Source: a virus. From it: 64,000 bases of DNA. Shown piece by piece: positions 11,753-35,946 of the stretch. The stretch lies in IMG/VR virus record IMGVR_UViG_3300033075_000468, one strand, 5' to 3'. Position numbers and translations under genes: made by a program. How positions within the stretch are numbered: position 1 is the stretch's first letter; each line of letters begins with the position of its first letter. The notes beneath the pieces are model-generated. The model saw only the letters and a program-made list of their open reading frames with translations, did not search any database and was not told where the DNA came from.

Positions 11753-12915
11753 GCAAACACCACATTTGTAACTGTCAGTACAGAACTAGGATCATATACC
11801 AAAGATCTTCCTGTATCGAATACTCTGATATTAGATACAGAGCACCCTGTTATCGGTGGATCATATGCAGATATATACGAACCCGCAGATCCTTGCTGAC
11901 TATAAATATCTACACCACTTACTGACGAGTTAGAAATGCCTAGATTACTATTATAGAATAAAATACTTGGGTGTCCACTTCCAGTAGAGCTACGAGTAAT
12001 TTTTCCACCAGTTATACTAACCCCATCTACATAGTTTGTCGTATATTCTGATTCTGAAGAAATATATATACTAGCATATTGAGAGTCTTGAATATCAATA
12101 TCTGTGAATGTGATAAATTCTCCACCAACGACAGATAATCCTCTTGCTCTACCACCACGATACACTGGTCTATTCACTGTGATATCGTGACAAATATTAG
12201 AAGTTCCATAAGATACGATAGCCACTCCGCCCCCTCCAGTTACCGTAACTTCTTGTGAATAGTAAATATAATATGATGTTACTGCCTGTGGTCCAGTTAT
12301 GGAATTATAAGAAGAGGTATAGAAAGAAGATACATACCCAGCAATCCCATATGTGCCAGCAACCGTATAAGAAGTATTTACAGGTGATCCTATTACTGAC
12401 CAATAAGATGTGGTAGCATTAGTAGTTTGTAATCCTTCAACCGGAATAGTAATACTAGTATCTTGTTCAAACCACACTATGCCATCAAATGAAGTGGCTT
12501 GCTTAGACTTGGCTATAGGGGTAATAGTAACTACGTCTCCCACAGCAGGTGTCAAATTAGATACGGTAAACTCTGGAACGATAGGGTCTGCCGGAATAGT
12601 AATAACAACATCTGCTGGACCATCATCACCAGTGTAATAAATGTGAGCTTCACAGTTATATCCATAGTAAGTTGAAGCAAGCTCAGGCATTTGAAAATCA
12701 TATATATCAGAGCTACCAGAAATGGTAAACGGACCAAGGCTGTACTGTCTCCACAATGGGCCAGACTCATTCAGATTTATTGTCCACTCCCCGCCAGTAG
12801 ATCCGCCAAGCAAATCAATGGTGAGTCTCCAATGGTCAATATCTGCTGGATCAGGGGCCTGCCCAGGAGTGCTCGAATCAAATCTTCTGTCTACATAGAG
12901 ATTAAATACTGTCAT
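11749..12915 (-). CDS. Tail fibre or spike-associated protein.
   Basis: ORF of 388 aa. Its C-terminal roughly 130 aa (GG.ARG..VVG......D.D.QD..YA.IYIS.E......GHPSILF...VDIY.Q.G) are homologous to the C-terminus of the adjacent 1297-aa protein. Confidence 0.5.
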   Translation of the reverse strand: MTVFNLYVDRRFDSSTPGQAPDPADIDHWRLTIDLLGGSTGGEWTINLNESGPLWRQYSLGPFTISGSSDIYDFQMPELASTYYGYNCEAHIYYTGDDGPADVVITIPADPIVPEFTVSNLTPAVGDVVTITPIAKSKQATSFDGIVWFEQDTSITIPVEGLQTTNATTSYWSVIGSPVNTSYTVAGTYGIAGYVSSFYTSSYNSITGPQAVTSYYIYYSQEVTVTGGGGVAIVSYGTSNICHDITVNRPVYRGGRARGLSVVGGEFITFTDIDIQDSQYASIYISSESEYTTNYVDGVSITGGKITRSSTGSGHPSILFYNSNLGISNSSVSGVDIYSQQGSAGSYISAYDPPITGCSVSNIRVFDTGRSLVYDPSSVLTVTNVVFA

Positions 12916-15900
12916 CCGTACACCACATTTGTTGCTGTAATTCCACCCGCTGTCAGTGCTGTTCTAGGAGTAGAGAACACTGTTACATTTGTTGCAGAGC
13001 ATGATGTTGGACCACCACGCCCCTCAATAAAGTATGCTCCATCACCCGCTTGATTATAGATATCTACTCCGGTAATAGAACAGTTATTAACTGTACCACC
13101 TGTATCTTGGAAGAACAAGATTGACGGGTGTCCATTATTTCCATTAGCACAACTAGTAACCTTTCCTCCCGTGACTGAGCAGTTCGTTGTTGGCTCCGTA
13201 TCATACGATATAGTCTCATTTGATATATATATACCAGCATAAGCTGTATCTTGTAGATCAACATCTTGAGCAACACAATTGTCAGCACCAACCATTGCAA
13301 CACCACGGGCGTTACCACCCCTACATACAGGTCTTATCCAAGTGATATTTGTATTTGGTCCCTGGCCTCCATACCCGACAATAGCAAAGCAGTCGTCTCC
13401 AGAATTCTCTACATAACAATCCGTGTATGTGATATTGTCACATGCATCTGTATTGTGAATGGAGTCAGAGTTTGTGTTCATCACAATCAGATTCTCTACT
13501 GTTGAGTTGGTAGCAGCCGAACCCATAAAGCCAGCAGCATATGAACCATGCACTGCACAGTTCTTTACCGTAATTCCATTACCTCGCATAGTGACTTTAT
13601 TATGCTCATAATTAGCTCCACGTGTAGTCGCATCATTGCGGAAGATGATTCCAAATGCTGAAGCTCCATCTCTCAGCCATACATTTGAAGTTGTATCATT
13701 TGTTCCCCAAAGTATTGCCCCGCCTGTGATGTCATTTCCACTTCTTGATCCACCACCATACATCGGGATACCATCACAGAAAAGGACATCGCTATGACAA
13801 TAAGTCTTTGATGAATTCAAGATCATTGAACCCGAACCATTTGCTAGCACTGCATCCATGCAAGCTTGAAGCGCAGCAGTATCATCGGCTACACCATTAC
13901 CAAGCGCACCGTAGTCTTCTGGATAGAAGAATGGCGCTACAGGTTCATCAGGAGATGTTGAGCTATTTGCGAATACTTCTATTGCCCCCGCAGACCATGT
14001 TGTGTCGGTGCGATAGTTACGCAGTGCATCAGGCCACCCACCTATACGTGAATACAATGCCGAATCAACTACCACTTCATCAGATGTGATCGGTCTAAAA
14101 CTCGTCCATGTACCAATCGTAGGTGTCCCGAAATAATTGGAGCCTTGTGCTGAGCGATCAAAGTTATTCGATGCATCATAAGATGATGGCTCGGCCAATA
14201 TCACATTGTCTACTGGCGTTGTAGCAACCTCATAAATATCAAACCATTTGTTCCCAGCATTCGGGAATGAGATATTCCCACGGACTACACAGTTCTCTGA
14301 ACCAATCGTGTCTATCTCCGCTTGCCCATTGATAGCTGTAGAGTTGCAATTACCGACTGATGTATTGAACATGATGTCGCAGTTGCGTGAGAACAACGAG
14401 TGAATTCCTCTACCACCATTATTGATAGTAATATTATTCATTACTAAGACTCGACCTGTATATCCCACAAGATTTGTGGCGTAGTCACCATTAGCAATAT
14501 CAATGATTATTCCATTGCCATCTGTGATGGCTCCACCATATGACGGGTCATTCTCGTTATTGTATGAAATATTGCCAATGATTCTGTTGTCATATCCATC
14601 AGCATCGACTCCCCCGCCTATATTCACAAGCTTGTAGAGTGAAATGCCCGAAGCAAAAGTATCTAGCCATCCTGAAGTATCGTGGACATAGTTATAGCAA
14701 ATATCATAATGATTGCATTCAACGCCACCAACACCTGACGCTCCATCGTGAATATCACAATTCCATATAGCTATGTGATGTGAATTGCCTACGCCAACAC
14801 AGTCTGCATACGGATGTCCTGAAGTGTTGACTGAACTAATCTCAAATCCATATGCTCCGATGTAACTAGAATTCTTGATGAGAATTCCTCGCTCAAGTCC
14901 TTCAGCATCAGCTTGTCCTGCGGCATCAATGTGAACTGTTGCTCCTGAAGCTGGCATAAGCAAGATATATTGCGAAGGATTCACATTGACAAAACTGACA
15001 GGTCCATATGTGCCTGTGGCCATCTCAATAATTCCACCAGTAGAAGCAAGTTGTGTTATGGCAGCCGCAACCTCTGCATCGTTTGCAACCTTTACAGTGA
15101 TAGCTGGGTGAGCATATCTATCCAAAAACATTTGTCTAATATCGGCTGTACCAGTACCACCTCCTGGTCCACCACCATTACCACCTGTACCACCACCAGT
15201 ACCACCTCCACCAGTAGAAGACGGAGTGCCATCAAAGTATGCTACTTTCATATAGTTTCCTGAAGAATTTCCAGCATATGTAGTATCTACTACAGATACT
15301 TCCCAATCAGAAGGCCATGTAAATCCACCCTCAACACTAGTACCCACCATAGCTCTAATAGTATATCCATTACATTGTAGAGCTATAACATGAGGCCATG
15401 CTGACGCTGTAGCAATCATATATTGTGATGTAGCTGTCTTTAATAATGTATGTGCACCAGTTTCATTTACCTTATAAATAGATAATGTTTTTTTAGATAG
15501 ATTCACATAAAGTGCATAACAGTTAGCTAGAGTTTGAGTAACATGTTCTTGAGTACTTCTAAACGATAAAACTATTGTTTTATCTCTATCAGTTGGTAAT
15601 GCTGAATACCCCCCTGCTTCATTCAACGGCCAAAACGGAACCACAGCATCAAAATTAGATGGAAGAAGAACATTGTATTCTGTGGCTGCCTGGTATGTAG
15701 CTGTTGGCCCTAGGGATATCTGGCCCATCTGTCCAGAACCACCATCTGTAACACCACTAACATCAGATCCATTATTATTTAAGTGAGCCCAGTTTGTATC
15801 CCATCCAATAGGTTCAAATGTTTCAGTAAAACTGAAATCAACAGGATCGGTACTTGGTTTTGTAACGGTACCCACTGGAGGATTCTGATATGAATCTGTT

Positions 15901-16805
15901 GTAGTCTCAAACAAATGAAATCCACGTGTCGCTATCTTTGCAGATGAAGCTGTAATAATTTGATTATCGTTCTGAGAATTATTTCCAAATTCAGCAATAA
16001 CTCTATGGCCTAACTCTAAAGTAGCAGATGTACTTGGGGGAGCAGGTGGAGTAGTTCCCTCGATACTTAATCCAAAGGAAGAATCTATTGTTCCAGAAAT
16101 CTCGCCAGGAATATATATAGATTTTGAGCTTGTGGCTACTGGAATTAATCTATTATTATCTGCTGACGCTACAAAATATATACCTGCTGCACCAGGATAA
16201 GCTTCAAATGTCTGAGTAGGATCAAATTGATAATCATATCCTCCGTCATAAATTATTCCATTATCAGCATAAAAGCTTAAAGAACTAAAGGCCCAACCAT
16301 TTGATGGTATAAGATTTGTAGCACTAACTGTAGGGGAAGATCCATCATATATAAATCTTGCAATAGTGACATACATATAATCACTACCGCCAAGCCATTG
16401 TTGAAATGGAAATTTAATTTCCCATGTTGGTTCGGTTGATGTAAAATTCTGTACATATAAATCAGCAACATAGGTGCCGTATCCGATCAAGCAAACATAT
16501 ACATAGTCACCTATCTGAGTTCCAGTAGGTACAGTTATTAATTCAGAATCATTAGTGGAAACAATTTGGGGTTCATAGGCCCGGAATCTGACAAAACTAC
16601 CAGAGCCATCTGAAAATGACAACGACATTCCCACCCATGGATCAGGGCCATTTACGCTCTGAGCCCATGAAGGCATTATAAATTTATCGTTGATATTTAC
16701 TGGTGGTTCCCGCTCTACATAGCCAATAGCAGTAGATAGACCCACACCAGTAGAGCTAGAATTTTCCGGCCCACTTCCCAATATTGTATAGTTAAATATC
16801 GCCAT
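12912..16805 (-). CDS. Tailspike-like protein with a predicted right-handed beta-helix, possibly a depolymerase.
   Basis: ORF of 1297 aa. It has repetitive N/G/I-rich beta-helix-like segments (NNITINNGGRGIHS, GNISYNNEND) and a Gly-rich linker (GGGGTGGGTGGNGGGPGGG). Its C-terminal domain matches that of the 388-aa neighbour. Confidence 0.5.
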   Translation of the reverse strand: MAIFNYTILGSGPENSSSTGVGLSTAIGYVEREPPVNINDKFIMPSWAQSVNGPDPWVGMSLSFSDGSGSFVRFRAYEPQIVSTNDSELITVPTGTQIGDYVYVCLIGYGTYVADLYVQNFTSTEPTWEIKFPFQQWLGGSDYMYVTIARFIYDGSSPTVSATNLIPSNGWAFSSLSFYADNGIIYDGGYDYQFDPTQTFEAYPGAAGIYFVASADNNRLIPVATSSKSIYIPGEISGTIDSSFGLSIEGTTPPAPPSTSATLELGHRVIAEFGNNSQNDNQIITASSAKIATRGFHLFETTTDSYQNPPVGTVTKPSTDPVDFSFTETFEPIGWDTNWAHLNNNGSDVSGVTDGGSGQMGQISLGPTATYQAATEYNVLLPSNFDAVVPFWPLNEAGGYSALPTDRDKTIVLSFRSTQEHVTQTLANCYALYVNLSKKTLSIYKVNETGAHTLLKTATSQYMIATASAWPHVIALQCNGYTIRAMVGTSVEGGFTWPSDWEVSVVDTTYAGNSSGNYMKVAYFDGTPSSTGGGGTGGGTGGNGGGPGGGTGTADIRQMFLDRYAHPAITVKVANDAEVAAAITQLASTGGIIEMATGTYGPVSFVNVNPSQYILLMPASGATVHIDAAGQADAEGLERGILIKNSSYIGAYGFEISSVNTSGHPYADCVGVGNSHHIAIWNCDIHDGASGVGGVECNHYDICYNYVHDTSGWLDTFASGISLYKLVNIGGGVDADGYDNRIIGNISYNNENDPSYGGAITDGNGIIIDIANGDYATNLVGYTGRVLVMNNITINNGGRGIHSLFSRNCDIMFNTSVGNCNSTAINGQAEIDTIGSENCVVRGNISFPNAGNKWFDIYEVATTPVDNVILAEPSSYDASNNFDRSAQGSNYFGTPTIGTWTSFRPITSDEVVVDSALYSRIGGWPDALRNYRTDTTWSAGAIEVFANSSTSPDEPVAPFFYPEDYGALGNGVADDTAALQACMDAVLANGSGSMILNSSKTYCHSDVLFCDGIPMYGGGSRSGNDITGGAILWGTNDTTSNVWLRDGASAFGIIFRNDATTRGANYEHNKVTMRGNGITVKNCAVHGSYAAGFMGSAATNSTVENLIVMNTNSDSIHNTDACDNITYTDCYVENSGDDCFAIVGYGGQGPNTNITWIRPVCRGGNARGVAMVGADNCVAQDVDLQDTAYAGIYISNETISYDTEPTTNCSVTGGKVTSCANGNNGHPSILFFQDTGGTVNNCSITGVDIYNQAGDGAYFIEGRGGPTSCSATNVTVFSTPRTALTAGGITATNVVYG

Positions 16806-16808
16806 AAG

Positions 16809-17219
16809 TTAAACCGCTTGTACAAGCGTAAGAGATATTCTATATCTGAATCCCTCTTCGGTGCTGCGGCGTTGCAATAATTCTTCTTCGTATGACTCAA
16901 CGAATACAGTATATGTATTATCATGTAAGCCATCTTTCACACGAAGATCCATAGAACCATATGAATCCAACGCCACCGACGAAATTTGGTTTCGTCCCCC
17001 GAACCCATCAATTGTATATGTCGCATCGGCAGACACATTTGTCCATTGAATGGTCCACTTTTTGTACAAGCCTTTTATGTATCTTCTCTTTGAACCATTA
17101 GCAAGTTCCACCTCTACCATGCGCTCATCACGCTGTGTCTGTAGAGGTTCCCTAGACTCATCAGTAAACTCTACCCCGTTTAGAGATATGATATTTGGCA
17201 TTGAGAACGTGATTGGCAT
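16809..17219 (-). CDS. Hypothetical tail protein immediately downstream of the tape measure gene.
   Basis: ORF of 136 aa whose start overlaps the tape measure stop. Confidence 0.4.
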   Translation of the reverse strand: MPITFSMPNIISLNGVEFTDESREPLQTQRDERMVEVELANGSKRRYIKGLYKKWTIQWTNVSADATYTIDGFGGRNQISSVALDSYGSMDLRVKDGLHDNTYTVFVESYEEELLQRRSTEEGFRYRISLTLVQAV

Positions 17220-20200
17220 TAGTGTGTCACCTTACTAAATGTTCTGGATTGAGTGCCCTTGACTCTTTGAATCTTGGGAGTAATCTCTCTGTCAATTCTG
17301 CCAACAAGCTTCTCAATCTCTCTGTCTGAACCGAAGAAGTTTCCATCAATGTGGACATGAATTTCTGTCTTTCCACCAGCATTGTAAGCTGCTGTTTGAC
17401 TTGCTGTCAGCACACGCTCACCCTTATGTACTTCTGCAATTCCAGACTTTCTAATCATACCACCAACATCTAGTGAAGGCACATTTTGTACAACTAATCC
17501 ATTGCGAATTTTGAAACCTAATTCACTATATGTATTTTGAAGATTCTCTGAACCAGCCTGCAAAGATTCACGTACTTGCTTTGCATTGATTGGCTCAACG
17601 TGCCATGGCTCGGAAGGAATTGGGAAGACTAGACCAAACTTTCTAGCAAGTTCTCTATCTGCTGGGGTTGAATTTGGAGCAGTGTCCATAGCAAGACCGA
17701 ATTCGTGCATTGATGAGCCAGGAGGCGCAGCTAGATTGCCCTTGCCCGCCAGATACTTGGCATACAAATCAGCTTGCTGTTGATATGATCTGAAGCCAGA
17801 AACAACATCAAACTTATTCCCTAGAGCAGCATTGAAATCATTGAATGCTTTCATAAATGCTGGATAGATATGATCAATGATCATATTGGCTGGGCTAGCA
17901 GCTTCTAGGATGGCTTGCTTCATTCTCGAAGCGTTAATATTTGTAGTTGTCCCGTCGCTACCTGTAAGTCCAAGCCCTATGTTTCCACCCATGAAGCCCT
18001 TAACAAACTGACCAAAGACATTCTTGATACCACCAGCAAGAACATCAGAAACCATACCACCAGAGTGGAACTTCATCTTTCCATTGTTCATTGCATCTAG
18101 CATCTTCTGACCGTACTTAGATACGGCAGATCTTTGCATTACGTATTCGCCACTAAGAAGTGTTGCGTCTACTTCACCAGGCATACCTGCAACTGTTCCA
18201 CCTGAGTGGTATCTATTAGGATTATCGGGGAATGAATTAACCGTATATCCCTTACGTCCTTGGTATCCTCCACCCTGAGCCTTCGCCCAATTGTCTCCAC
18301 CTGCTGCCGCTGCCGCTTCATCACCTGTTAAGGGTGCATTGCCAGGAGTATCTTCAAATGCCTTCGGATCTAGCTCAACACCAAGTTCCTTAGCAAATGC
18401 AGCCATGGCTTCTTGACCCATGTTCTTCCAGTAGTTATCATCTTCTACTTGCTTCTTGGCCTCATCCATAGCTGTCTTCCAAGAAGACGACCATGCGCTT
18501 GCATTCTCCGCACCGATTGTGGCATATCCACCAGTAGCAGCGCTAAGTGCCCCAAGAATCTTGGCCTGTAAATCCTTCGCAGCCTGTTCACTTCGTGGAG
18601 TAAATTCTGTGAATGCGTCAAGCTGTGCCTCTAGAGCCTTTCTTTGTGCAGCAATAGACTTCTCAAGGGCGTCCTTTTCAATTTGTAGTCTTTCCTTTTG
18701 GGCGTCCCGTTCACGATCTACAAGAGTCTTTACACGATCCTTGTCAACATCAGCATCTTCTTTTCTAAGATCCTTCAGTGATTGACCATGGTCATAGTCC
18801 ATTTGCTTAGCATCATCGAATCTACCCTCATAGATAGCAAGGGCTCTATCGGCACGATACTTGACATTCAGTTCTCTACGCTTCTCACGAATCTCTTCCT
18901 TGCGGCGTAGATACTCAAGATCTTCGTCACGCTTACGCTCGGCGTCAATCTCTTTGTCTATTGCTTTGACTTTCTCGTCAATAGCATCTTTTTGGGTCTG
19001 AGCCCAATCATCAAAGGCTGAAAGCGCTGCGTCTTTCCAGCCCTCCATAATCTTTTCTAGCTTAGACTTGAATGCAGAAATGAATTCTTTTGTGGCTTCT
19101 TCAGCAGCAGCCTTTTGTTCATCAGGAGTTGGCAAGTTTGAATAAAGATCAAGCTTCTCCTGATTAATCTTATCAAGCCCGTCTTTGTATGCTTCTCCCT
19201 GCTTCTTCCCAGCTTCAGCAGCTTTTCTATTTGCAGAATCGGTATCCCATACCTTATCTTCAAGTGCGCTTTGTGCTGCTCCTACTGCATCTAGAGCACT
19301 TTGCTTCCATTTATCTACATTCTCTAGAGGACCAGCCCCACCTACAGGATTCAAGAACGCAACAAACTTACGGGCTGCGTTCCCGATCATACCCATACCC
19401 TCAATTGTGCCTCTTACAAGAGCGAACACGCCCTTGATAACAGCAAGCACGGCAAGACCAGCCACCATCTTCATGTGGTCCCACACTTCACTGAAAATTT
19501 CCTTAGCCGCATCCCAAGCATCTGACCAATCTCCTGTAAGGAGAGCAATGATAAGTCTAATCGCTTGAATGAATATATAAAGAGCACTAGCCAATGTGTC
19601 TGCAAGCAAGCTTACAAATGGTCTAATAACGTCTATTATCTTGGAGAATGCTCTGGCTGCTGCACCTATAATAGTTCCAATGTTTTTCCACATTGAACCT
19701 TGCTTATTGCCCTCGCCACCTAGACGCTTGAATACGCCAATAAATGGATCAATAATGCCATGCCATAGTTTGGACAGAGATTCCTTAAGGGCCTCAATGC
19801 CAGGTCTAGCCGTATCAATCCATTTCTTCCAGTTCTTCCATAGGATCAATACGACAGCAGCAATAGCAGCAATAACAAGTATCCATGGTCCAGCCGCAGC
19901 TAGTCCAGTAGAAATTTGCCCAGCCATTTGTGGACCGAACATACCCTCCATGATTGCGACACCCTTGCCACCCTCTTGAGCGAAGCTCTTCATGAATCCT
20001 GTGAATTTACCTATAGAAGCAGCAGGATTAGTTAGAATGTTTAAGAAACCAAATGCTTTACCACCAACAGACTTACCTTTTTCTGACTCGGCAGCATCCT
20101 TAACCAGTCCACCAAAGAACTTGGCTCTTGAAAAACGCTTCTTTCTTGTGATCGGGAATTGATCCCCAGCAAATTGAGCTAGAGTCTCAGTAGTATCTCT

Positions 20201-23200
20201 GTCCCGATAACGCTGAACGAAGTCCAAAGCACGCTCTGCTGCTCCACCAGCCTTAGATCTAGTCTTTGAGAATCTACCCTCACCAGGCATATTCCGCCAT
20301 CCATACCCAAGCGTATCTCCCGCCTGTTGAGCAATCTCTTGTCGCATCTTCCACTTAGCAAATCTAGAAATCTCTTTACGAGTATAATTCTTGGCGTCTC
20401 TACCAGTAGAAACATCATCAAGGTGCATCTCTGCCAACAACTTCTGTTGTTCAACAGTAAGAGCACGGAACTTTCTCGCCCCGACAAGCTCTCTCTTAAA
20501 GCTTCTCTTCGCCAGCGCTTCCTTATTCTTGTTTACTCTATCATTTGCAGTATCACGAATAGCAGCGGTCTTAGCATTCTCTAGATTGGCTGCGTCCTCT
20601 GCCTTCTTGGCTAGTTCCTCAGCTTCCTTAGCAATTCTATCGGCAGCTTTTGTTTTAGCCTCATTCCATGCAGCTTTCTCTGCCTCCCATGCAGCAAGTT
20701 TGGCTTCGTTTCTAGCTTTAATTTCTTCTCTTTGCTTTGCTGAACCCTTAACCTTCTCAAGTTGTGGCTTCTTAGGCTCTTCGCCAGTTCCTAATTCTGC
20801 ATTAGCAAGCTCTTCAAGCTTCTTATTTCTACGCTCTTCTGTTACTCTGTTAAACTCTTGTTCTGAATTGAAGATTTCTTCAGTACCATCATCATAAGTT
20901 ACCTTGAAAGCACTTGTGAACATATCAGCAAGTTCTCTCTGTGCCTTGTCTCTATCTAGCTTAGCCTTTGACAATTGGTTCTGAAGCCCCAGCTTACGAC
21001 GCTTATATACTTTAGCAAGTCTCTCGTCATGTGCCTTTACAGCAGCTTCTTCAGCAACTCTTGCCTCTTCTAGCTGGTCCTCGATAACCCAAAGAGCGTC
21101 TTGTTTAGTAACAAAGGCATCTCGCATTCCATCAATCTCTTGTTGAGAATGGCTAGCCAGTGCATCTACAGCACTATATCCTCTATCACTTCTAGCTTCT
21201 CCTGTATCCTTAACAAGATCCGGGTCCATCTGGAATTCTTTTCTAGCATTGTCGTCTTCTGGCCCATTTGCTCTTAGACCATTCAAGGTATTGACACGCC
21301 CATCCATTCCAATGGACTTCATACCTCTGCGTCGTGCAGCCTCAGCAATGTCTCTAGTGATTGTCTCACCAAATACCAATTGAGCCATATCAAGGTTTCT
21401 ATTTAGCTCACCCGCAATAGCATGAGCACGCTTTGCATACTCTGTAACCATGTCTTCTGACAAGTCGGGGAAATATGCACGCACAAGCTTCTTCGCATCA
21501 CGCAAAGAGTTAGAAGTTACACGTGATTCACGAATCTTACCCTTCTTAACGGTTGCTTCAGTACCCTCTGTTGCTGCTGCAACTGTCATGTTGTGCAACA
21601 AGCCTGCCATCTCAGGAGAAAGATTTCCTACAAGCGCTCCCAGGTTTGGAACACGCTCAAACTTAACACGACCTCTTCTACCAAAGAGTTTAGGTGCAGT
21701 CTTATCTGATGGGCCAAAGTATTTATCAAGTATATCACTGTGTCTCTCTCCACCAAAGATATCCTTGCTATACTTCTCTGCTTGCTCTTCCCGGCGAGAC
21801 TTCTTGCCAAACTTGACAGTACGCATATAACCGCTCTTATCCAGAGCAGCGTCAAGTGCCTCTAAATCTGTATCGTATAGCTGACCCTTTGTTAGAGATT
21901 CAATGAATCTTGTTGCTTCTATAATCTTGCGCTCTGAACGCTTATTCATTCCACGCATTCCAGACTGTGCAGCAATAACTTCATCTAGAGTAAGTAACCT
22001 TCTAGTCTCTAGATCCCGCAGTTCATTCTGAATCTTTGCTATGTAGTCCTCAACTAATGCACGACGCTCTGGACGAGTAGCACTCTCACCAGTTCTCTTA
22101 TCAAATCTATCGAGTGTATACATAGCCTTAGAAAGCTTGTCTCTAAGGTTTCCAGTATAGAAATTGTAAAGTTCCTCATCACCGTGAACTTCTTCCCAAT
22201 CATTATCAATCTTTCTGATTGTCTCAATGTTTGCAGCAATAGACTTCTTGTGTCCATCAATAAGCTGTCTGGCTCTACCCAATGACTCTGAGTGCTTAAC
22301 TGAGAAATCTTCTGGATCTAAGTCCACTGTGTCTGAATCAATCTCACCAGATATAGCAAGGTTCTTAAGAGCACGAAGTAGTGCTTCTCTACGGCGTTGA
22401 CCTCTTTCAATCAGATCACCAGTCTTACCCATCTTGGCTTGTTCGGCTTCAAACTTGTCAAATGTCTTATTGAAGTCGTATAGAAGAGAGGTATAGCCCT
22501 TCGCAATTTTTTCATCGCCAGTGTCAAAAGTTTGTCTTCTAAGGAAATCTTGGAATCTACGAACTGCACGCTCAGCATCACCATACTGTCTTGGCTTACG
22601 CAATCTTCCATTGCTAAATCTGTCAGCATAAAGCTCTGCCTTCTTTGCCTGAAGCCGACCCATCTCATCAAATAGATCGCTAAGATCTTGAAGTCTTTTA
22701 CCTGTTGCTGAAAGTCCTTCTTCTTGTGCAGCAAGAATTTCTCTTACGCCAGCAAGTGCCTCGTCAACCTCACCAACAGATTTCTTAATTGCACGGGCCT
22801 TGATAGAGCCCTGGCTTCTTATGAGATTGCTACCAGTCAATGACCGATCTACACCATATGAAGGTGTTGTCTGTGATGCATCTGGATTAAGGGCACTGTC
22901 TGTAGCATGCTTGATAATGCTCTCGAATTCTTGAGTAAACATTCTGTCCACCCCAGCCTTATCCATAATCTCCTTTGAGATTTGAGCTACTACAGCAGTA
23001 GCCTTATGGAAGTCCTCGGTTGGCAGCATGGCACTAAGCGCTTTCATAGCCTCAGCCGGTCTATAACCCGCATAAACAATTCTTGAAACAGCATCGGCTA
23101 CAGCAGGAGGCAGACCACCCTTTGAAGCAATATGTGAGTGCTGATCTGATTGCCCGAAAGCGCTTCTAATGAAGTCGATCATTATCTCTTCATTTTTCTT

Positions 23201-26200
23201 ATCTGACTTCTCAATAGTAAGAGCATTTCTTGCACGAATCATTCCGTTAATTTCAACGATACGATCATAAGCAGGCGAATCTGCATCTGGAACTTGTAGT
23301 TCTTCGATAAGAGAACGAACACGACTAATCATCTTTTGGATTTCTCCATCAGACATACCAGCGTGGATTTCCTTCTTCTTCTTAGTAAGCTTATTGCTTA
23401 GAATACCAAATGTATTTGCTAGCTTTTCATTACCACGCTCTACATATGTTTCTCTTTCACCTAGGCTCTTTGAGAAGAACATATTATTTATCTTGTCGCC
23501 AACTACAGTTGCAACAATAGAATCTACACCTCTAGGCGAAGCTCCAATTTCTCCTGAAGTTACTTGTTCCATACCAAATTTTCTAGGAGTTCTTGGGCGT
23601 GCAGCAAATCCTTTAAAGAATGTATTTCTTCTATCATCTTCAGCGAGAATTTTATCTAGTCCGGTAAAGTCAAAATACTTCTCTCCCGACTTATCATCTT
23701 GCCCCAACTCAAGCAGTTCTTTGAGTGATTCACCAATAAAGTAATCAGGAGCCAAAGACTTAGATCTTGTATTGCCCGTGATATTTCTGATCGTTCTCTT
23801 TAGACCATTGCTAAGACCTACTTGTCTTTGGATCTCAACAAGATCATTGCTGTCTGGCACCATACCACCGGCAATATCTTGAACAATGCGAGCAATCGCA
23901 TCACGCATAACACTCTGTGAGCGAAGGATTCTTTTTCTTTGTACCTTCAAAAGACTTGTGTTTGTAGCTGTGTGTCTCCCACTTGAAACCTCGTTCTCGA
24001 TCATTTCAAGTACATACTTGTTCTTACCCTCAACAGTCTCGACCATCTTGATCAAGCGCTGTTGCAGGGTATTGAATTGAGCAGCCTCAGTAGGAGAGAA
24101 TGATTCAGTAATAGAACGAAGAACCCGCCCCATCTCTTCAGTGAGTCCTTGGTCCTTCTTCATTCTGCCCTTTTGACCTTTGCCAGCTAATTCAGCTTTT
24201 CTAATGTCATAAAGGCTCTTGCTTATTCTCTCTACAGGGTCTAGTCCTTTACCCCGAGCATCAACATCTTGTGCCTCAGCTTTTGCTACCTCTAGCACCT
24301 GTGCAATTTGTCTATCATATTCCCGCTCTGATACGTCAATAAATCCTTGGCCTGAAGAATCATGAATTAGTTCCTTAATATGCTCGAACATTGTAAAAGG
24401 CAATGGACGTGGATCATCTGCCGTAGTCATTGCTTCTCTAGCTCTGACAATATCTGAAGCAGCTTCTTCAATAGTGTCTCTTGCCGGGAAGGCATCTCTT
24501 CTTGCTTTAAGGCCAGCACGCTCAAGGGCATCCTTAAATAGTGCTGACTTATCTTGTGCAGATAGATCTGACTTCTCTGCTGCCTTGATCCACTGATCAA
24601 CTTGAACGGCAGTGATAGTTTCACCACTTGGCTTTTCCACAAGCTTACGAAGGGTTGAATCCCAAGTTGTAACTTTTTCTCTACGAATTGATCCTCTTAG
24701 TCTCTCAATTCTCTTTGATGCGGCTTCTGACCCAGCCGAATTTGTAGAGATATCACGCAATGTATCTCTCAAAGCATCAGAGAATCTATAGAATCTGTTC
24801 TCGAAGTCTGCAAGAGCCTCAGCAGGATCAGCAATAGACATATCAATAGTTACAGGAGCATCATATCCCCATGTCTTCTTGAATGATGCCATTCTATTTC
24901 TAAGACGCTCTAGTCTCTCAATGCGATTATTTACAGCATCAAGATCCGGGTCCACCATATCGCCAAGAGCTAGTCTTCTTGCAAGATTCTTGATATCTGC
25001 CTCTGAACCTAATGCCTTGATTTGATCGTCTGAAGAAGCAATTATTGCCTCAAGATCCTTGACTCTGGCATCTGTTTGGCCAGGCTTTAGGATTGAGGTA
25101 TCAATAGCTTCCTTTACGTCTTTACCTCTACCTAGCCCAATTCTCTTATTTCTTCTGATAATCTTATTTCTTAATGACATTGCAGCATCTTCAGAAGAAA
25201 CTGCGCTAGCTGTTGCTGTACCAGGCATCAAAGTAGCAAGATACGCTCCCGAATCGAAAGCCTCATGCTTTAATGAACCAGCAGCCTTGCGCTTCATAGC
25301 AATGCCCGCAGCCTCAACAGAGTTGAGGTGCGTTTGTGCTGTGGCCTGAGCCTCAATAGCAGTAGCATTAGCAGTAGCAGCAGCAGTGTGCGCCTGTGTT
25401 GCTGTAGCGATACCTTCAGTAGTTATCTTTGTCTTAGAAGCTTCATCAATAAGTGTCTTTAAAGTTACCTTGTAATCATTGATGCTTATTTTTCCCTTAG
25501 AAAATGCATCATTAAGAAGAACAAGTGCGTCCTCGGCTTCAGGCGTCCACTTCCACATCTCACCAAAAGTTTTGGATATACCAAACAGCTTAAGGAATGG
25601 GAAGATCAAACCCTTTGCTGATGTGCCAAGCACGATCATCGCCTGACCAGCAGAATAAATCACTGGACCTAATGCGGATAGACCTACCAGCAATGTAAGC
25701 GCAGCCTTTTTTACGCCCTCAGGAAGCTTCTCAAACGAGTCAATAACTTTCTTTATATTCTCAAGAAGATCAACAACATACGGAATAAGCTTCTTGCCAA
25801 TGTCCTGACCAGTATTAACGATCTTTTGAAGTAGACCTTGAATACGGATTGTCTCATCAGCACCTACAACATCTAGCTGCTTTGACCATTCCTGAGCGAA
25901 TGCACCAATTTCTGTATTAGCAATGTTCATTGCTATTGCAAGATCTTGTCCGCTAGCTGTCGCTTGATCCATTGACTTAGACAGTGCCTCAAGAAGCTGT
26001 CCACCTTCTGTAGCCCCTTCTCCACCAAACAATGCTCTAATAGTTCTGAGAGATGTTGCGTACTTTGTGGGATCTGTTTTTTCTAATAGAGCATATCCCT
26101 TTGCCAATTCAGAAAGCATTTGCACAGCAGTTGCAGGCTTCCCGTCATTATTCATGAGCTTAACCTGTACGCCAGTAAGCTTTCCTATAGAATTGATTTG

Positions 26201-27358
26201 CTCCTGAAGGTCCTTAAGTCTTTGCTTACCACCTGTTGAACCCGTCTCAATGTTTGCAAGAGCAGTAGGCAACTTTACAAGTGCGTTATTCAATGCCCGA
26301 GCAGCATCAGAGGCAGACAGACCACCCTGGGTAATACCAGCCATAAGGGCTGCTGTCTGTGTAATAGAAGCATCGAATCTTTTTGTAGTTGGGAATACAT
26401 CTGCTAGAGCAGCAGCAGTATCCTTAATGTTCATGTTTGTCTTCTGATCAATGATCAAGAATTTTTGTAGCTGATCTTCTACTGTTTCGATAGACATACC
26501 AGCCTGATACATAACCTGCACAAGCTTTTGTGCTTCTGAAGTATCAACCTTACCTAGAATTGCTAGCTCTGAAGCTTGTTGTGTGGCTTTACCTACTTTT
26601 TCAATACTAAAGCCTACACGTGCAAACTCTGATTGCATTTCTTTCAGGCTTACACGTGTCATTCCATATGTCTCAGAAAGTGAGCGAGTCTGATCATCAA
26701 GCTTCTTTAGATCGTCTGAACTAGCTGTAGAAAGTACACGCTTAAGAACAAGATCTACTGCACCAATTTCCATGGCAGCACGAACAGAAGTAACACCAAT
26801 AGCAGCTAGTGGAGCAGTAACACCAACCATAAGCTGGCGACCAGTCCACTGTGCATTCTTACCTAGCTTGATCCACTTATCTGCTGTGTTATCAAGATAT
26901 CTTGTGATTAAGTTGCCCTTGATCAAGAATCGAGTATGCGCCATGTCCATGTCATTCATTGATCTGACATATCCATTGTGTCTAGTCGATGTTGTCTCGA
27001 ACTCTTTACCTAACCGATATAGACCTTCCTTAAGTCCATTCAATGACTTAAGATATCTATTATCTATAACCTTTGAGCCCTCGTTCCAGGCATTAGCCAA
27101 GAGGGACCCGTGCTCTCTAGCAAGCTGGGCCTGAGTGATGTTTTTATTAAGGGCTTTGGTAACTGTACCAATGGCAGCAGCTTGTTTATTAGCGCTGCTA
27201 GCTACCGCTCCCCCACCTAGTGCTTTATTCATAGAAGCACTGGCTTGTTCCATAGCCTTAGCTATGCCCTTCGCCATTTGCTCTACTACTTGCCCACCCT
27301 TGATTGCTGATGTAGCATCAACATTTACAACGATGGGCATTACAATTGCTTGACTCAA
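17219..27358 (-). CDS. Tail tape measure protein (3379 aa) with a C-terminal M15-type peptidase motif.
   Basis: It lies immediately downstream of the chaperone pair. It has long Ala/Glu/Lys-rich coiled-coil tracts, a hydrophobic Gly-rich membrane-like segment, and a C-terminal SSMHEFGLAMD, which fits the M15 signature S-x-H-x-x-G-x-A-x-D. Confidence 0.8.
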   Translation of the reverse strand: MSQAIVMPIVVNVDATSAIKGGQVVEQMAKGIAKAMEQASASMNKALGGGAVASSANKQAAAIGTVTKALNKNITQAQLAREHGSLLANAWNEGSKVIDNRYLKSLNGLKEGLYRLGKEFETTSTRHNGYVRSMNDMDMAHTRFLIKGNLITRYLDNTADKWIKLGKNAQWTGRQLMVGVTAPLAAIGVTSVRAAMEIGAVDLVLKRVLSTASSDDLKKLDDQTRSLSETYGMTRVSLKEMQSEFARVGFSIEKVGKATQQASELAILGKVDTSEAQKLVQVMYQAGMSIETVEDQLQKFLIIDQKTNMNIKDTAAALADVFPTTKRFDASITQTAALMAGITQGGLSASDAARALNNALVKLPTALANIETGSTGGKQRLKDLQEQINSIGKLTGVQVKLMNNDGKPATAVQMLSELAKGYALLEKTDPTKYATSLRTIRALFGGEGATEGGQLLEALSKSMDQATASGQDLAIAMNIANTEIGAFAQEWSKQLDVVGADETIRIQGLLQKIVNTGQDIGKKLIPYVVDLLENIKKVIDSFEKLPEGVKKAALTLLVGLSALGPVIYSAGQAMIVLGTSAKGLIFPFLKLFGISKTFGEMWKWTPEAEDALVLLNDAFSKGKISINDYKVTLKTLIDEASKTKITTEGIATATQAHTAAATANATAIEAQATAQTHLNSVEAAGIAMKRKAAGSLKHEAFDSGAYLATLMPGTATASAVSSEDAAMSLRNKIIRRNKRIGLGRGKDVKEAIDTSILKPGQTDARVKDLEAIIASSDDQIKALGSEADIKNLARRLALGDMVDPDLDAVNNRIERLERLRNRMASFKKTWGYDAPVTIDMSIADPAEALADFENRFYRFSDALRDTLRDISTNSAGSEAASKRIERLRGSIRREKVTTWDSTLRKLVEKPSGETITAVQVDQWIKAAEKSDLSAQDKSALFKDALERAGLKARRDAFPARDTIEEAASDIVRAREAMTTADDPRPLPFTMFEHIKELIHDSSGQGFIDVSEREYDRQIAQVLEVAKAEAQDVDARGKGLDPVERISKSLYDIRKAELAGKGQKGRMKKDQGLTEEMGRVLRSITESFSPTEAAQFNTLQQRLIKMVETVEGKNKYVLEMIENEVSSGRHTATNTSLLKVQRKRILRSQSVMRDAIARIVQDIAGGMVPDSNDLVEIQRQVGLSNGLKRTIRNITGNTRSKSLAPDYFIGESLKELLELGQDDKSGEKYFDFTGLDKILAEDDRRNTFFKGFAARPRTPRKFGMEQVTSGEIGASPRGVDSIVATVVGDKINNMFFSKSLGERETYVERGNEKLANTFGILSNKLTKKKKEIHAGMSDGEIQKMISRVRSLIEELQVPDADSPAYDRIVEINGMIRARNALTIEKSDKKNEEIMIDFIRSAFGQSDQHSHIASKGGLPPAVADAVSRIVYAGYRPAEAMKALSAMLPTEDFHKATAVVAQISKEIMDKAGVDRMFTQEFESIIKHATDSALNPDASQTTPSYGVDRSLTGSNLIRSQGSIKARAIKKSVGEVDEALAGVREILAAQEEGLSATGKRLQDLSDLFDEMGRLQAKKAELYADRFSNGRLRKPRQYGDAERAVRRFQDFLRRQTFDTGDEKIAKGYTSLLYDFNKTFDKFEAEQAKMGKTGDLIERGQRRREALLRALKNLAISGEIDSDTVDLDPEDFSVKHSESLGRARQLIDGHKKSIAANIETIRKIDNDWEEVHGDEELYNFYTGNLRDKLSKAMYTLDRFDKRTGESATRPERRALVEDYIAKIQNELRDLETRRLLTLDEVIAAQSGMRGMNKRSERKIIEATRFIESLTKGQLYDTDLEALDAALDKSGYMRTVKFGKKSRREEQAEKYSKDIFGGERHSDILDKYFGPSDKTAPKLFGRRGRVKFERVPNLGALVGNLSPEMAGLLHNMTVAAATEGTEATVKKGKIRESRVTSNSLRDAKKLVRAYFPDLSEDMVTEYAKRAHAIAGELNRNLDMAQLVFGETITRDIAEAARRRGMKSIGMDGRVNTLNGLRANGPEDDNARKEFQMDPDLVKDTGEARSDRGYSAVDALASHSQQEIDGMRDAFVTKQDALWVIEDQLEEARVAEEAAVKAHDERLAKVYKRRKLGLQNQLSKAKLDRDKAQRELADMFTSAFKVTYDDGTEEIFNSEQEFNRVTEERRNKKLEELANAELGTGEEPKKPQLEKVKGSAKQREEIKARNEAKLAAWEAEKAAWNEAKTKAADRIAKEAEELAKKAEDAANLENAKTAAIRDTANDRVNKNKEALAKRSFKRELVGARKFRALTVEQQKLLAEMHLDDVSTGRDAKNYTRKEISRFAKWKMRQEIAQQAGDTLGYGWRNMPGEGRFSKTRSKAGGAAERALDFVQRYRDRDTTETLAQFAGDQFPITRKKRFSRAKFFGGLVKDAAESEKGKSVGGKAFGFLNILTNPAASIGKFTGFMKSFAQEGGKGVAIMEGMFGPQMAGQISTGLAAAGPWILVIAAIAAVVLILWKNWKKWIDTARPGIEALKESLSKLWHGIIDPFIGVFKRLGGEGNKQGSMWKNIGTIIGAAARAFSKIIDVIRPFVSLLADTLASALYIFIQAIRLIIALLTGDWSDAWDAAKEIFSEVWDHMKMVAGLAVLAVIKGVFALVRGTIEGMGMIGNAARKFVAFLNPVGGAGPLENVDKWKQSALDAVGAAQSALEDKVWDTDSANRKAAEAGKKQGEAYKDGLDKINQEKLDLYSNLPTPDEQKAAAEEATKEFISAFKSKLEKIMEGWKDAALSAFDDWAQTQKDAIDEKVKAIDKEIDAERKRDEDLEYLRRKEEIREKRRELNVKYRADRALAIYEGRFDDAKQMDYDHGQSLKDLRKEDADVDKDRVKTLVDRERDAQKERLQIEKDALEKSIAAQRKALEAQLDAFTEFTPRSEQAAKDLQAKILGALSAATGGYATIGAENASAWSSSWKTAMDEAKKQVEDDNYWKNMGQEAMAAFAKELGVELDPKAFEDTPGNAPLTGDEAAAAAGGDNWAKAQGGGYQGRKGYTVNSFPDNPNRYHSGGTVAGMPGEVDATLLSGEYVMQRSAVSKYGQKMLDAMNNGKMKFHSGGMVSDVLAGGIKNVFGQFVKGFMGGNIGLGLTGSDGTTTNINASRMKQAILEAASPANMIIDHIYPAFMKAFNDFNAALGNKFDVVSGFRSYQQQADLYAKYLAGKGNLAAPPGSSMHEFGLAMDTAPNSTPADRELARKFGLVFPIPSEPWHVEPINAKQVRESLQAGSENLQNTYSELGFKIRNGLVVQNVPSLDVGGMIRKSGIAEVHKGERVLTASQTAAYNAGGKTEIHVHIDGNFFGSDREIEKLVGRIDREITPKIQRVKGTQSRTFSKVTH

Positions 27359-27418
27359 ACGATCACCCGTATTTAAAGGAATAGACTACTCTCTAAGTAT
27401 AGAGCAAGTTTTTTTTAA

Positions 27419-27721
27419 CTACACCTTCTCATATCCCATCTTAAATTCAAGGAACTCAGCTTGAAGTCCTTTGTCTGCTTCCTCTTCCTTTTTCTTTTTC
27501 CATTCACGCTCTGCCTCGATTAGTTCCTTTGGCAAATCTCCATCGAATTTAGGTTGAGAAAGTTCATCATCGCCTACTTCTATACCTTGAACTGCTGCCA
27601 TCATTTTAAACTCATTTCTTTTGGCTTTACCTAATTGCTCAGATAATAAAAGTAATTCATCAAGGATAAGATATTCTTCTATATCGTCAAAATTCTTCCA
27701 GGCCCCGATTCCATTTACCAT
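27419..27721 (-). CDS. Tail assembly chaperone, frameshift-extension (T-like) ORF.
   Basis: Acidic 100-aa ORF directly upstream of the tape measure gene. Its frame stays open into the last roughly 10 codons of the upstream chaperone gene in the -1 frame. Confidence 0.45.
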   Translation of the reverse strand: MVNGIGAWKNFDDIEEYLILDELLLLSEQLGKAKRNEFKMMAAVQGIEVGDDELSQPKFDGDLPKELIEAEREWKKKKEEEADKGLQAEFLEFKMGYEKV

Positions 27722-27780
27722 TAAATCGGCCTCTATCTCAGAGAAAGGTATATCCTCAAATTTGACCCCATCCCCTGAGC

Positions 27781-28092
27781 TTACTCTTCCGGGCTTGACT
27801 GACCCATTGCTATATTCATTAGCTTAGCAAATACATCAAGATCAATAGAATCCTCTAGTCGCTCTCTGTCCGCTGCTAGTTCTGGATCTACCTTCTTAAG
27901 AATGATGGATGCTGCATCCATCATGGTATCAATATCTTCGTCATTCATAGCCGTACCAAACTTCTCTTGATCCATCTTTTCAATGATCTTTACGAAGTCT
28001 CTTAGCTGACGAATAGTCAGTGGCTTAACTAATCTCTCTTGCTCATCAGCGAAAACCACAAGTTCGCCTTTTCTAACATTATGCTTGTCCAT
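27781..28092 (-). CDS. Tail assembly chaperone (G-like).
   Basis: Acidic 103-aa ORF between the major tail protein and the tape measure, the canonical position. Confidence 0.5.
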   Translation of the reverse strand: MDKHNVRKGELVVFADEQERLVKPLTIRQLRDFVKIIEKMDQEKFGTAMNDEDIDTMMDAASIILKKVDPELAADRERLEDSIDLDVFAKLMNIAMGQSSPEE

Positions 28093-28178: not shown

Positions 28179-28724
28179 TTACGATTCAGCGTCTACAATT
28201 GTTCCATACTCTTGTCCAGTATGTGAAGCATCCGGCAGAATTCTAAACTCTACAGGGAACAGAGTTGCCTCTGAACGCTTGTATGAGTGACCTGACGAAG
28301 CGACGGATACTGCACGCCAGCATGTGTATGTACGATCGAATCCTTCTGGCGAAGTACCAATGAATTGAAGCTGACGCTCTGTCGGCTTACCTGTCTCATT
28401 TACACCTAGCTCAAGTGTTCCACCGAATGTTCCCGCTGTATAAGCAGCATCGGGGCGACCCCACGCAATTGCGAGATTTGCCAGAGTTGCCTCGGCAAGA
28501 GTCGTCTTGATCATTACCTTTACTGACTGCTCGATAAGTCTAGCAGCGTCACCGAATTGGTCTACGTTAATGTCCACCATGTTGGGCTCAAGCGTTACCT
28601 CTACACCGTCTACTGTGAATCCCATATCCGCTAGCGGGGTTGCTGGGGATAGATTTGCATCTAGCTCTCCTGAGAGCTTGATCGTACCTACGCCGACTAG
28701 AATATTCTTAACCTGTCGTGCCAT
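28179..28724 (-). CDS. Major tail protein (tube).
   Basis: ORF of 181 aa immediately upstream of the chaperone pair, preceded by a strong RBS (AGGAGG) and an upstream structured region. Confidence 0.55.
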   Translation of the reverse strand: MARQVKNILVGVGTIKLSGELDANLSPATPLADMGFTVDGVEVTLEPNMVDINVDQFGDAARLIEQSVKVMIKTTLAEATLANLAIAWGRPDAAYTAGTFGGTLELGVNETGKPTERQLQFIGTSPEGFDRTYTCWRAVSVASSGHSYKRSEATLFPVEFRILPDASHTGQEYGTIVDAES

Positions 28725-29955: not shown

Positions 29956-30963
29956 TTAGGCGATAGCTGCGTCTGAAACTGCAATATCAGAAATTGTTAC
30001 TGCGGCATCAAGGTTCTCGATCTGGTTCGCAACTCTTGTGTACACTGTGTACTCAATTGCGTCCTTCTTCGGCTTGTACTCACGGTAGACCTTAATCTCA
30101 CGCTGTACACCGACGATCATGTTCTGCGGAATTGTCCACACACCATAACCGTGATCACCTGTTGCACCTGAATAAGAACCATCTACGTCCTCTGGCCACA
30201 GCGGAATTTCAACTGGCTGAACACCGAACGGACGAAGGAAGATTGATCCCCCACCATTACCGGCTACAGCTTCCGAACCGTATGCCTTCTCCTGAAGGTT
30301 CAGGAAGGCACCACCTGTTGCGTCAGTTGTTACGTTCATGAAGTCCTGTAGCAGACCCGGTGACGTGAAGAAACGGAAGTTTCCTCTACGAGAAAGATAC
30401 TTTCTCGGCAGTGTCTTTACAGCCTTGTTGAAGACTGACTTGTTCAGGTTCGCTCCACCAGCAGAAACAACGTGTGCTCCCGCTAGGAATCTCTTGATGA
30501 AGCCATCTAGTGCAGATAGCAGCGCATCACCTGAACCTGTATCACCATTGATGTACAGATCCTCAAGATCGTTTCCAAGCTGTGTTGCCATCAGTCTTGC
30601 TACGTGATCCTCTAGTGCATCGCCCTCAAGGTTATCCTCAAGTGACTCCGTTGTTAGCTCCCAATCCAAACGGATCTTCACTGTTGTCATCGAAATCTTT
30701 GCGAATGTAGGATCTACGTTCTGACCATCATCTGTACCCTCAGTTGCCTTACGAGCTAGACGACGACCGACAGCAATCTTATCAATTTCCATTGCAGGGT
30801 TATTCATCTTAACTCTGCGAACCATTGAGGTTAGCGCTGTCTCGTCCCACATGTAGTCGATAAAGCGGTTAGCCTGCTCTGGCTTAAGAATACCACCGCC
30901 AGCAGCACCAATCGCTGTGGTTGTAAGTACCTTCTCAAGTAGCTCTTCTGTAGTAGCCATCAA
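29956..30963 (-). CDS. Major capsid protein (HK97-like fold).
   Basis: ORF of 335 aa directly downstream of the protease/scaffold gene, with MCP-typical composition and a strong RBS. Confidence 0.65.
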   Translation of the reverse strand: MMATTEELLEKVLTTTAIGAAGGGILKPEQANRFIDYMWDETALTSMVRRVKMNNPAMEIDKIAVGRRLARKATEGTDDGQNVDPTFAKISMTTVKIRLDWELTTESLEDNLEGDALEDHVARLMATQLGNDLEDLYINGDTGSGDALLSALDGFIKRFLAGAHVVSAGGANLNKSVFNKAVKTLPRKYLSRRGNFRFFTSPGLLQDFMNVTTDATGGAFLNLQEKAYGSEAVAGNGGGSIFLRPFGVQPVEIPLWPEDVDGSYSGATGDHGYGVWTIPQNMIVGVQREIKVYREYKPKKDAIEYTVYTRVANQIENLDAAVTISDIAVSDAAIA

Positions 30964-35762: not shown

Positions 35763-35946
35763 AAATCATTTTCGTTCTGTGAAACAGGGTCTTTTCCCTA
35801 CATACCTCGCATGGAAGATGGATATCTTCCAACATACAGTTTTTAAGCTCTAACTCAAATTCTTCGCATTCTTGGCATTCATACACTGCGAGGAAATGTA
35901 GAGGATAGTTAGACATTATTTCTCCGGGCACCCATTCGGACCACAA
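35746..35946 (-). CDS. Small Zn-ribbon protein.
   Basis: ORF of 66 aa with CQECEE...CEVCREK. Confidence 0.3.
   Translation of the reverse strand: MWSEWVPGEIMSNYPLHFLAVYECQECEEFELELKNCMLEDIHLPCEVCREKTLFHRTKMIYGLSI

Follow-up and report, generated by a model that had tools for sequence, protein, structure and literature searches.

A 3379-residue tape measure protein with a VanY-type peptidase domain in a probable uncultured relative of Stanwilliamsviridae phages

Introduction

Streptomyces phages Circinus/BillNye (Stanwilliamsviridae, Loccivirinae) encode a tape measure protein (TMP), gp36, of 2102 amino acids (aa), and five Stanwilliamsviridae isolates related to them have tails of 343–359 nm (bioRxiv 10.1101/2024.02.16.580700). 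With regard to the functions of such proteins, deletion of 114 residues of the TMP of mycobacteriophage TM4 made the tail ~20 nm shorter, in proportion to the loss, and the hydrolase motif embedded in that protein improved infection of stationary-phase cells (PMC1796659). These two results are the experimental basis of what we propose below on ruler and lysin, although the TM4 peptidoglycan hydrolase (motif 3 of gp17) belongs to a different family and its protein is much shorter than the one described here. T5 Pb2 also has a wall hydrolase that is embedded in the TMP and delivered at infection, again of a different family and in a much shorter protein. Here we analyzed a stretch of 64,000 nucleotides of viral DNA (IMG/VR record IMGVR_UViG_3300033075_000468; the whole stretch is called the window), in which the gene at the position of Circinus gp36 (17219..27358, minus strand) encodes a TMP of 3379 aa.

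An original prediction, drawn from the nucleotide letters and their translations, had regarded this gene product as an exceptionally long TMP with an M15-type peptidase motif and a tail near 500 nm. The best explanation of our data, which we hold to be highly probable, is that it is a real TMP with an M15B lysin domain and a six-part module map, encoded by an uncultured siphovirus, large and rich in tRNA genes, with a distant relationship to Stanwilliamsviridae.

Results

The TMP gene and its product

The TMP gene is, just as first described, a single uninterrupted open reading frame (ORF); it begins with TTG, ends with TAA and has 3379 codons, and such a long open frame cannot have arisen by chance. 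The stop shares one nucleotide with the ATG of the next gene. The sole plausible alternative start is the ATG at codon 7, from which some public gene calls begin, giving 3373 aa. The identity of the product as a TMP, claimed in the original prediction, is borne out by several lines of evidence. By PHROG matches of the neighbouring genes, it comes after the major tail and chaperone genes and before the distal tail and tail-tip genes, the same order as in Circinus genes 33–38. Pfam PhageMin_Tail (PF10145) matches aa 222–435 with 52.7 bits (cutoff 33.2), ten TMP families of PHROG have matches either in the first ~1,100 or in the last ~900 residues (best E 8e-25), and BLASTP against the Circinus TMP gives an E of 6e-21, with colinear modules as shown below. 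The protein contains no cysteine, and 19 of 23 aligned giant relatives are likewise cysteine-free.

Contigs from other assemblies were recovered by exact look-up of the small proteins flanking the TMP. In Logan SRR12487046, the ORF is intact (11 residues exchanged, no indels; 99.7% aa identity), and those parts of the gene product that are contained in SRR32380200, SRR32380201 and JGI 3300033074 are 100% identical to the window TMP; short fragments are present in activated-sludge and other assemblies. A split of the ORF in other isolates, which had been named as a sign against the prediction, was thus not found. One may still suspect that two or more genes were joined into the long ORF by faulty assembly or annotation, since annotation of this very DNA can err: the gene call of SRR32380200 is a 3500-aa fusion. 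However, this call is made on identical DNA by reading through two in-frame TAG codons (27386–27421, minus strand), which alone part a 100-aa ORF at a chaperone position from the TMP, both in the same frame. Because the DNA is identical and TAG terminates 14 of the 53 genes of the window, the 3500-aa call is an annotation artefact, and amber-codon recoding as its source was rejected on the same grounds. Moreover, at least four other sequencing runs or samples yielded assemblies in which the 3379-codon frame is unbroken, intact frames are also found in relatives of 3369 aa and 3521 aa, and the protein is colinear from end to end with the product of a single TMP gene in the cultured phage Circinus. 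Hence, the probability of a fusion artefact is negligible.

Module map and comparison with Circinus

Module boundaries were set from a composition and hydropathy scan of the 3379-aa protein. The N-terminal TMP core (N-core; aa ~131–600; 25559..26968, minus strand, as for all modules below) holds the PhageMin_Tail match and a hydrophobic segment at aa 552–571; its mean identity is 39% across the family of giant TMPs described in the next section and 26% to Circinus aa 143–546, to which aa 150–571 correspond. It is followed by a highly charged central spacer without known domain (aa ~601–2430; 20069..25558). Three transmembrane helices are predicted by the hydropathy scan at aa 2481–2653 (19400..19918), and 19 of the 20 closest relatives have this feature in an equivalent place; the helices align to Circinus aa 719–820, the counterpart of a hydrophobic region at aa 2430–2508. 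Next comes a strongly charged conserved segment (aa ~2691–2990; 18389..19288; up to 59% K/R/D/E), which is probably a coiled coil as judged from its sequence; it aligns to Circinus aa 1250–1499 (window TMP 2691–2920), with 45% mean identity across the family. A Gly-rich conserved region (aa ~3040–3140; 17939..18241) with two HSGG...GE.V motifs has the residues G3053, G3054, G3070, E3071, G3083, N3091, G3100 and G3101 invariant in 24 sequences. Behind it are the VanY/M15B zinc peptidase domain (aa 3160–3262; 17573..17881) and a conserved C-terminus of ~90 aa (17222..17491) with a third GG...GE.V motif, which aligns to Circinus aa 2016–2096 (window TMP 3293–3365; 47% mean identity across the family).

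The motif of GG, ~10 residues and GE.V thus occurs three times (aa 3051–3075, 3098–3105 and 3297–3316; within 17222–18241), flanking the peptidase. None of the 24 aligned giant TMPs deviates at the Gly and Glu positions of this motif, which may touch the tail-tip complex. Two checks proposed in the original prediction, a hidden Markov model search and a search for internal repeats, gave PhageMin_Tail and VanY both above their Pfam cutoffs, and no internal repeats by self-BLASTP or Tandem Repeats Finder. Pfam searches of nine overlapping pieces of the TMP at E≤1 gave nothing past these two domains.

The window TMP and the Circinus TMP share the order N-core, transmembrane helices, charged coiled coil, peptidoglycan peptidase and conserved C-terminal ~90 aa. 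On the other hand, they differ in two modules. The peptidase slot holds a Pfam M23 peptidase in Circinus (aa 1906–2002) and VanY/M15B in the window TMP, and the distance from the N-core to the first transmembrane helix is ~270 aa in Circinus and ~1,945 aa in the window TMP. These facts indicate that the wall hydrolase was exchanged and that the spacer is longer in the window TMP. The two phages are not close: their major capsid proteins are 57% identical, yet no nucleotide similarity is found between them.

Metagenomic relatives

A HMMER scan of 1.84 billion representatives with aa 2430–3379 as query gave 2786 matches at E≤0.001, fewer than about 25 of which span the spacer. The top matches include ~20 clusters (50% identity) of 2620–3755 aa, and at least 19 share the architecture of the window TMP. 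In the alignment of this family, the N-core (~570 aa) and the part past the first transmembrane helix (860–1140 aa) are roughly constant in length, whereas the spacer varies from 1055 to 2137 aa. The motif SxHxxGxAxD is found in 17 of the 19 closest relatives, and several of the relatives add a lytic transglycosylase (SLT) domain after VanY.

IMG/VR was then scanned with the family alignment, giving 390 relatives; sizes were taken from the best 79 loci, which hold 55 complete stop-to-stop ORFs. Twenty-four of these complete ORFs have at least 3000 aa and six at least 3379 aa, the longest being 3923 aa. In quick profile tests, most of these ORFs were without detectable VanY, M23 or SLT, and only one locus (L021) had VanY. 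A second, larger set of IMG/VR loci (L059–L098) has ORFs of 2787–3932 aa at the TMP position that have only the N-core in common (~25% identity); no VanY, M23 or SLT was detectable in them by the same quick tests. Hence, giant TMPs are common in metagenomes well past this family. Among the many members of its uncultured lineage, the window TMP is typical.

The choice of query affected these searches. Scans for related loci with the single TMP found nothing in viral or metagenome contigs, and a homology search with aa 2440–3379 was empty; the charged low-complexity segment probably drowned out the candidates. The N-core as query gave one fragment, and a query of VanY plus the C-terminus gave useful homologues.

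One metagenomic relative (L004; Logan DRR438534 contig 513168) has a TMP of 3521 aa with 45% overall identity, which is distributed unevenly: 60–88% at the ends and 21–37% in the centre, with many indels. In the same contig, the 136-aa protein encoded after the TMP is 100% identical to that of the window, and the following four genes are equal in length. This mosaic pattern points to recombination in the tail module, or to divergence that differs greatly along it.

The VanY/M15B peptidase domain

The motif SSMHEFGLAMD (aa 3215–3225; 17684..17716, minus strand; SxHxxGxAxD), from which the M15-type peptidase had been proposed, lies 154 residues from the C-terminus and inside a complete M15B/VanY domain in which all catalytic residues are kept (R3190, S3216, H3218, D3225, E3250 and H3253). 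Pfam VanY (PF02557) matches aa 3175–3233 with 36.7 bits (cutoff 25; E 4.4e-9), and the C-terminal fragment alone scores 39.6 bits. Downstream, EPWH (17600..17611, minus strand) is the ExxH motif with the catalytic Glu and the third zinc ligand. All elements of the M15B pattern are found, namely His-x6-Asp with a distal His, SxHxxGxAxD, ExxH and an upstream Arg. In an alignment of 36 homologues, E3250 and W3252 are nearly invariant and G3188, R3190, Q3195, A3211, P3213, G3214, S3216, H3218, A3223, D3225 and H3253 fully so, and each of the six catalytic residues named above is invariant or at least 90% conserved; we take these positions to include all three ligands of the zinc ion, the glutamate that acts in catalysis, and the arginine for the substrate carboxylate known from VanY/LdcB enzymes. 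An AlphaFold2 model of the peptidase has a predicted local distance difference test (pLDDT) score of 91–98 and shows the LAS fold. The domain is compact (~103 residues), like the catalytic domains of phage endolysins, and is predicted to be a zinc peptidase acting on peptidoglycan stems. Four of nine sampled metagenomic proteins that match the domain carry PhageMin_Tail together with VanY.

There is the alternative that the VanY domain does not open the wall, being a stem-trimming carboxypeptidase or a structural plug without catalysis. The highest sequence identities (27–31%) are indeed with the carboxypeptidases VanY and LdcB, and the closest database homologues are small bacterial proteins, those with a source name being from Actinomycetota. 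However, the residues that bind zinc, the Glu of catalysis and the Arg for the substrate are all conserved across the TMP family. Among the matches of the predicted fold, which comprise Ply500, LysB4, VanY and LdcB, the best by coverage are Ply500 and LysB4, phage L-Ala-D-Glu endopeptidases. Moreover, the same slot is one for wall hydrolases, because it holds M23 in Circinus and SLT besides VanY in some relatives. Accordingly, we consider the alternative unlikely, though the least improbable of those discussed here, and prefer a wall-cleaving lysin.

The central spacer and the predicted tail length

The spacer is the most divergent part of the protein, with 21–37% identity and many indels even against the 3521-aa relative. 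An AlphaFold2 model of aa 1500–1980 (481 residues; nine-sequence alignment) has 76% helix, with helices up to 74 residues, one short beta-hairpin and no compact fold (mean pLDDT 60.6; predicted template modelling score, pTM, 0.27). Thus the spacer may be mostly helical according to this low-confidence model, which covers 481 of ~1,830 residues. A sequence search of the Protein Data Bank (PDB) with the whole spacer and a search with the family profile gave weak coiled-coil matches only. The conserved columns of the spacer are few, mostly Gly, Ala, Pro, Leu and Phe, with few acidic residues and no conserved motif. The exception to this drift is an island at aa ~1908–1978 (21425..21637, minus strand; LVGNLSPEMAGLLHNMTV ... 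PDLSEDMVTEYAKRA; consensus of alignments A4 and A5), for which the consensus across the giant-TMP family is LVGNLSPEMAxxLHExTV ... PDLSEDxxxEYA; it was modelled as short helices and the beta-hairpin, with pLDDT by block from 43 to 82. We regard the spacer as a ruler because it diverges fast in sequence with a large length kept across relatives; a helical segment that retains length while its sequence drifts is probably what a ruler should look like.

Cultured phages with long tails allow a calibration. Among the Stanwilliamsviridae, whose measured tails are given above, the calibrator TMPs have 2090 aa (DekoNeimoidia) and 2139 aa (Mandalore). Gordonia phages Katyusha and Benczkowski14 have a TMP gene of 9,084 bp and a tail of ~500 nm (PMC4919401), and Hotorobo and Monty have 9,984 bp and ~540 nm (PMC4982279). 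Thermus phage P23-45 has a TMP of 5002 aa and a tail of ~800 nm (PMC10770324). These four groups fall within 0.160–0.166 nm per residue. With 0.16–0.17 nm per residue in cultured long-tailed phages, the 3379 residues would therefore probably correspond to a tail of ~540–560 nm. The textbook value of 0.15 nm per residue gives 507 nm for 3379 aa. Thus the ~500 nm of the original prediction was fair, but probably a slight underestimate. The description "exceptionally long" is right when most cultured siphoviruses are taken for comparison, but no longer when the comparison is with Gordonia phages Hotorobo and Monty, Thermus phage P23-45 or the metagenomic relatives of the window TMP itself.

The spacer could instead be largely folded back or globular in a genuine TMP, with non-linear scaling and an ordinary tail of 200–350 nm. 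The loops that interrupt the helices of the aa 1500–1980 model, its beta-hairpin and its low pTM fit with such folding, and the conserved island suggests a small folded element. But every cultured calibrator, from 2090 to 5002 aa, shows 0.16–0.17 nm per residue with the embedded lysin or polymerase domains included, and the fast divergence of a spacer that stays long across relatives is the pattern of a ruler. Therefore we consider a folded spacer with an ordinary tail improbable, slightly more so than a peptidase that leaves the wall closed.

As a further alternative, an enzyme or effector that enters the cell together with the TMP may lie unrecognised in the spacer, as with the virion RNA polymerase of P23-45. 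There is a precedent of a giant TMP carrying an enzyme not detectable by its sequence (PMC10770324), and room for cargo would exist in the island at aa ~1908–1978 or in folded domains among the ~1,350 spacer residues outside the model. Against this, neither the TMP nor its family has a conserved DxDxD, BLASTP against P23-45 gp96 gives a best E of 0.07, and the Pfam searches at E≤1 and the PDB searches gave only noise, of coiled-coil type in the latter. The lack of a motif in the conserved columns and the low, indel-rich identity to the 3521-aa relative also speak against it. We thus regard cargo in the island or elsewhere in the spacer as very unlikely, clearly more so than a folded spacer, and an RNA polymerase of the gp96 type fused to the TMP was rejected on the DxDxD and BLASTP results. 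If the cargo reading were true, a widespread uncultured lineage would form a second class of cargo-carrying giant tape measures. One family member (P0070, 2637 aa) has an exact DFDGD at aa 1168, which is conserved in no aligned relative and is probably there by chance.

Genomic setting

The TMP gene lies in a minus-strand block from ~40 kb down to 4 kb of the window, which is a standard siphovirus structural module in the order portal (32587–34368), head maturation protease, major capsid protein (29956–30963), major tail protein candidate, two small ORFs, TMP, minor tail protein and tail-tip/fibre proteins. The major tail protein candidate (181 aa; 28179..28724, minus strand) matches PHROG 2175 with E 1.6e-33 and, more weakly, other PHROGs of major tail proteins. 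By its position, the first small ORF (103 aa; 27781..28092, minus strand) is probably a tail assembly chaperone, and the second (100 aa; 27419..27721, minus strand) is probably the T part of the chaperone by frame and position; both sit where Circinus has its chaperone genes. The second ORF is shifted by -1 against the frame of the first, and its frame is open across the junction (27419–28092), which is probably the usual frameshift layout of chaperones; no canonical X XXY YYZ slippery heptamer was seen by eye near the junction (gca atg ggt cag tca agc ccg gaa gag taa).

Directly after the TMP, at the position of the distal tail protein, is a 136-aa minor tail protein (16809..17219, minus strand; synteny with Circinus gp37), which is followed by several large tail-tip or fibre proteins. 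A 1297-aa protein two genes past the TMP (12912–16805, minus strand) has weak matches to pectate-lyase-like beta-helices at aa ~960–1185, below the Pfam cutoffs, and may be a tail spike of depolymerase type. A 362-aa protein at 4264–5352 has an F5/8 type C carbohydrate-binding domain. Within the structural block there is also a ribonucleotide reductase gene (1033 aa; 35916–39017, minus strand) between two GT4 glycosyltransferase genes (34782–35762 and 39087–40133); it contains an intein with a LAGLIDADG homing endonuclease, as seen in precomputed Pfam data for the identical protein of another contig (L002).

The window has a GC content of ~43% and 22 tRNA genes (41877–63678 and 1349–1427), mostly in a plus-strand array with small ORFs interleaved; large tRNA sets are typical of Stanwilliamsviridae-like phages. 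The capsid protein is 55–57% identical to those of Streptomyces phages of Stanwilliamsviridae, with which the structural module is syntenic. In megablast against cultured phages, the TMP gene had no match and the neighbouring 24 kb matched tRNA genes only. Bacterial and archaeal genomes, scanned with the family alignment, yielded no relative and hence gave no clue to the host; the cluster members of VanY homologues added only two "Actinomycetota bacterium" names of metagenome-assembled genomes.

Discussion

From what is known of characterised TMPs, we propose the following model. Copies of the TMP, held by the two upstream chaperones in a presumed oligomeric state, would extend from the tail-tip complex, and the major tail protein would polymerise around them until the N-terminus is reached. 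Because polymerisation would run to the N-terminus, protein length would set tail length, and the spacer, which differs in length among relatives, would tune it by lengthening or shortening in evolution. At infection, the TMP may exit the tube in the presumed orientation, C-terminal end first, so that the VanY peptidase would locally cut the peptide stems of peptidoglycan at a putative stem bond, and the hydrophobic helices may insert into the membrane to form a DNA conduit.

Several points weigh against this model. Endopeptidase action on a cross-linked wall is putative, as the closest sequence relatives of the peptidase include the carboxypeptidases VanY and LdcB. With 481 of the ~1,830 spacer residues modelled, folded sub-domains may exist elsewhere, and the predicted spacer helices, which are broken by loops, could pack back to give a shorter ruler.

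The window TMP is another well-supported addition to the short list of phages with predicted half-micrometre tails. Such TMPs are common in uncultured relatives of Stanwilliamsviridae, and some assemblies of the window phage are from activated sludge. Tail length is apparently tuned by a single discrete, fast-evolving helical spacer (1055–2137 aa), while the end modules remain constant, and the place of the wall hydrolase before the conserved C-terminus appears to be an exchangeable slot for M23, VanY, or VanY plus SLT. The variable spacer and the hydrolase slot may be reused as design rules from nature when tail length or lysin specificity is to be engineered.

With regard to size, the direct precedent is found in phages of Gordonia terrae. 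Hotorobo, Monty and Woes have TMP genes of 9,969–9,984 bp and tails of ~540 nm, and Katyusha, Benczkowski14 and GMA7 have TMP genes of 9,084–9,141 bp and tails of ~500 nm (PMC4919401; PMC4982279). They are siphoviruses of Actinobacteria, partly from wastewater, with TMPs of 3027–3327 aa. Their TMPs are set apart from the window TMP by description, being reported with lytic transglycosylase domains and not M15, and their genomes of ~75 kb have none or one tRNA gene, in contrast to the 22 in the window alone. In Thermus phages P23-45 and P74-26, the 5002-aa TMP gp96 belongs to a tail of 0.8–1 micrometre and has transmembrane and metallopeptidase domains (PMC10770324; PMC10034513). However, gp96 has no detectable sequence similarity to the window TMP, is ~1,600 aa longer and carries an N-terminal virion RNA polymerase with DFDGD, a motif that is not conserved in the window TMP family.

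The combination of VanY and TMP is also known already. Rhodobacter phage RcZahn has a VanY-like domain at aa ~1277–1401 of its TMP gp29 (1678 aa), in the C-terminal quarter, with 30% identity to that of the window, though gp29 is half as long, the host is proteobacterial and the tail module is otherwise unrelated. Lysin domains in TMPs are known in general. What is new here is the module map, the exchange of M23 for VanY at a fixed slot and the variable spacer as the difference among relatives. The window TMP is not unprecedented, since the TMPs of cultured Gordonia and Thermus phages are comparable or longer, and the current understanding of TMPs stands.

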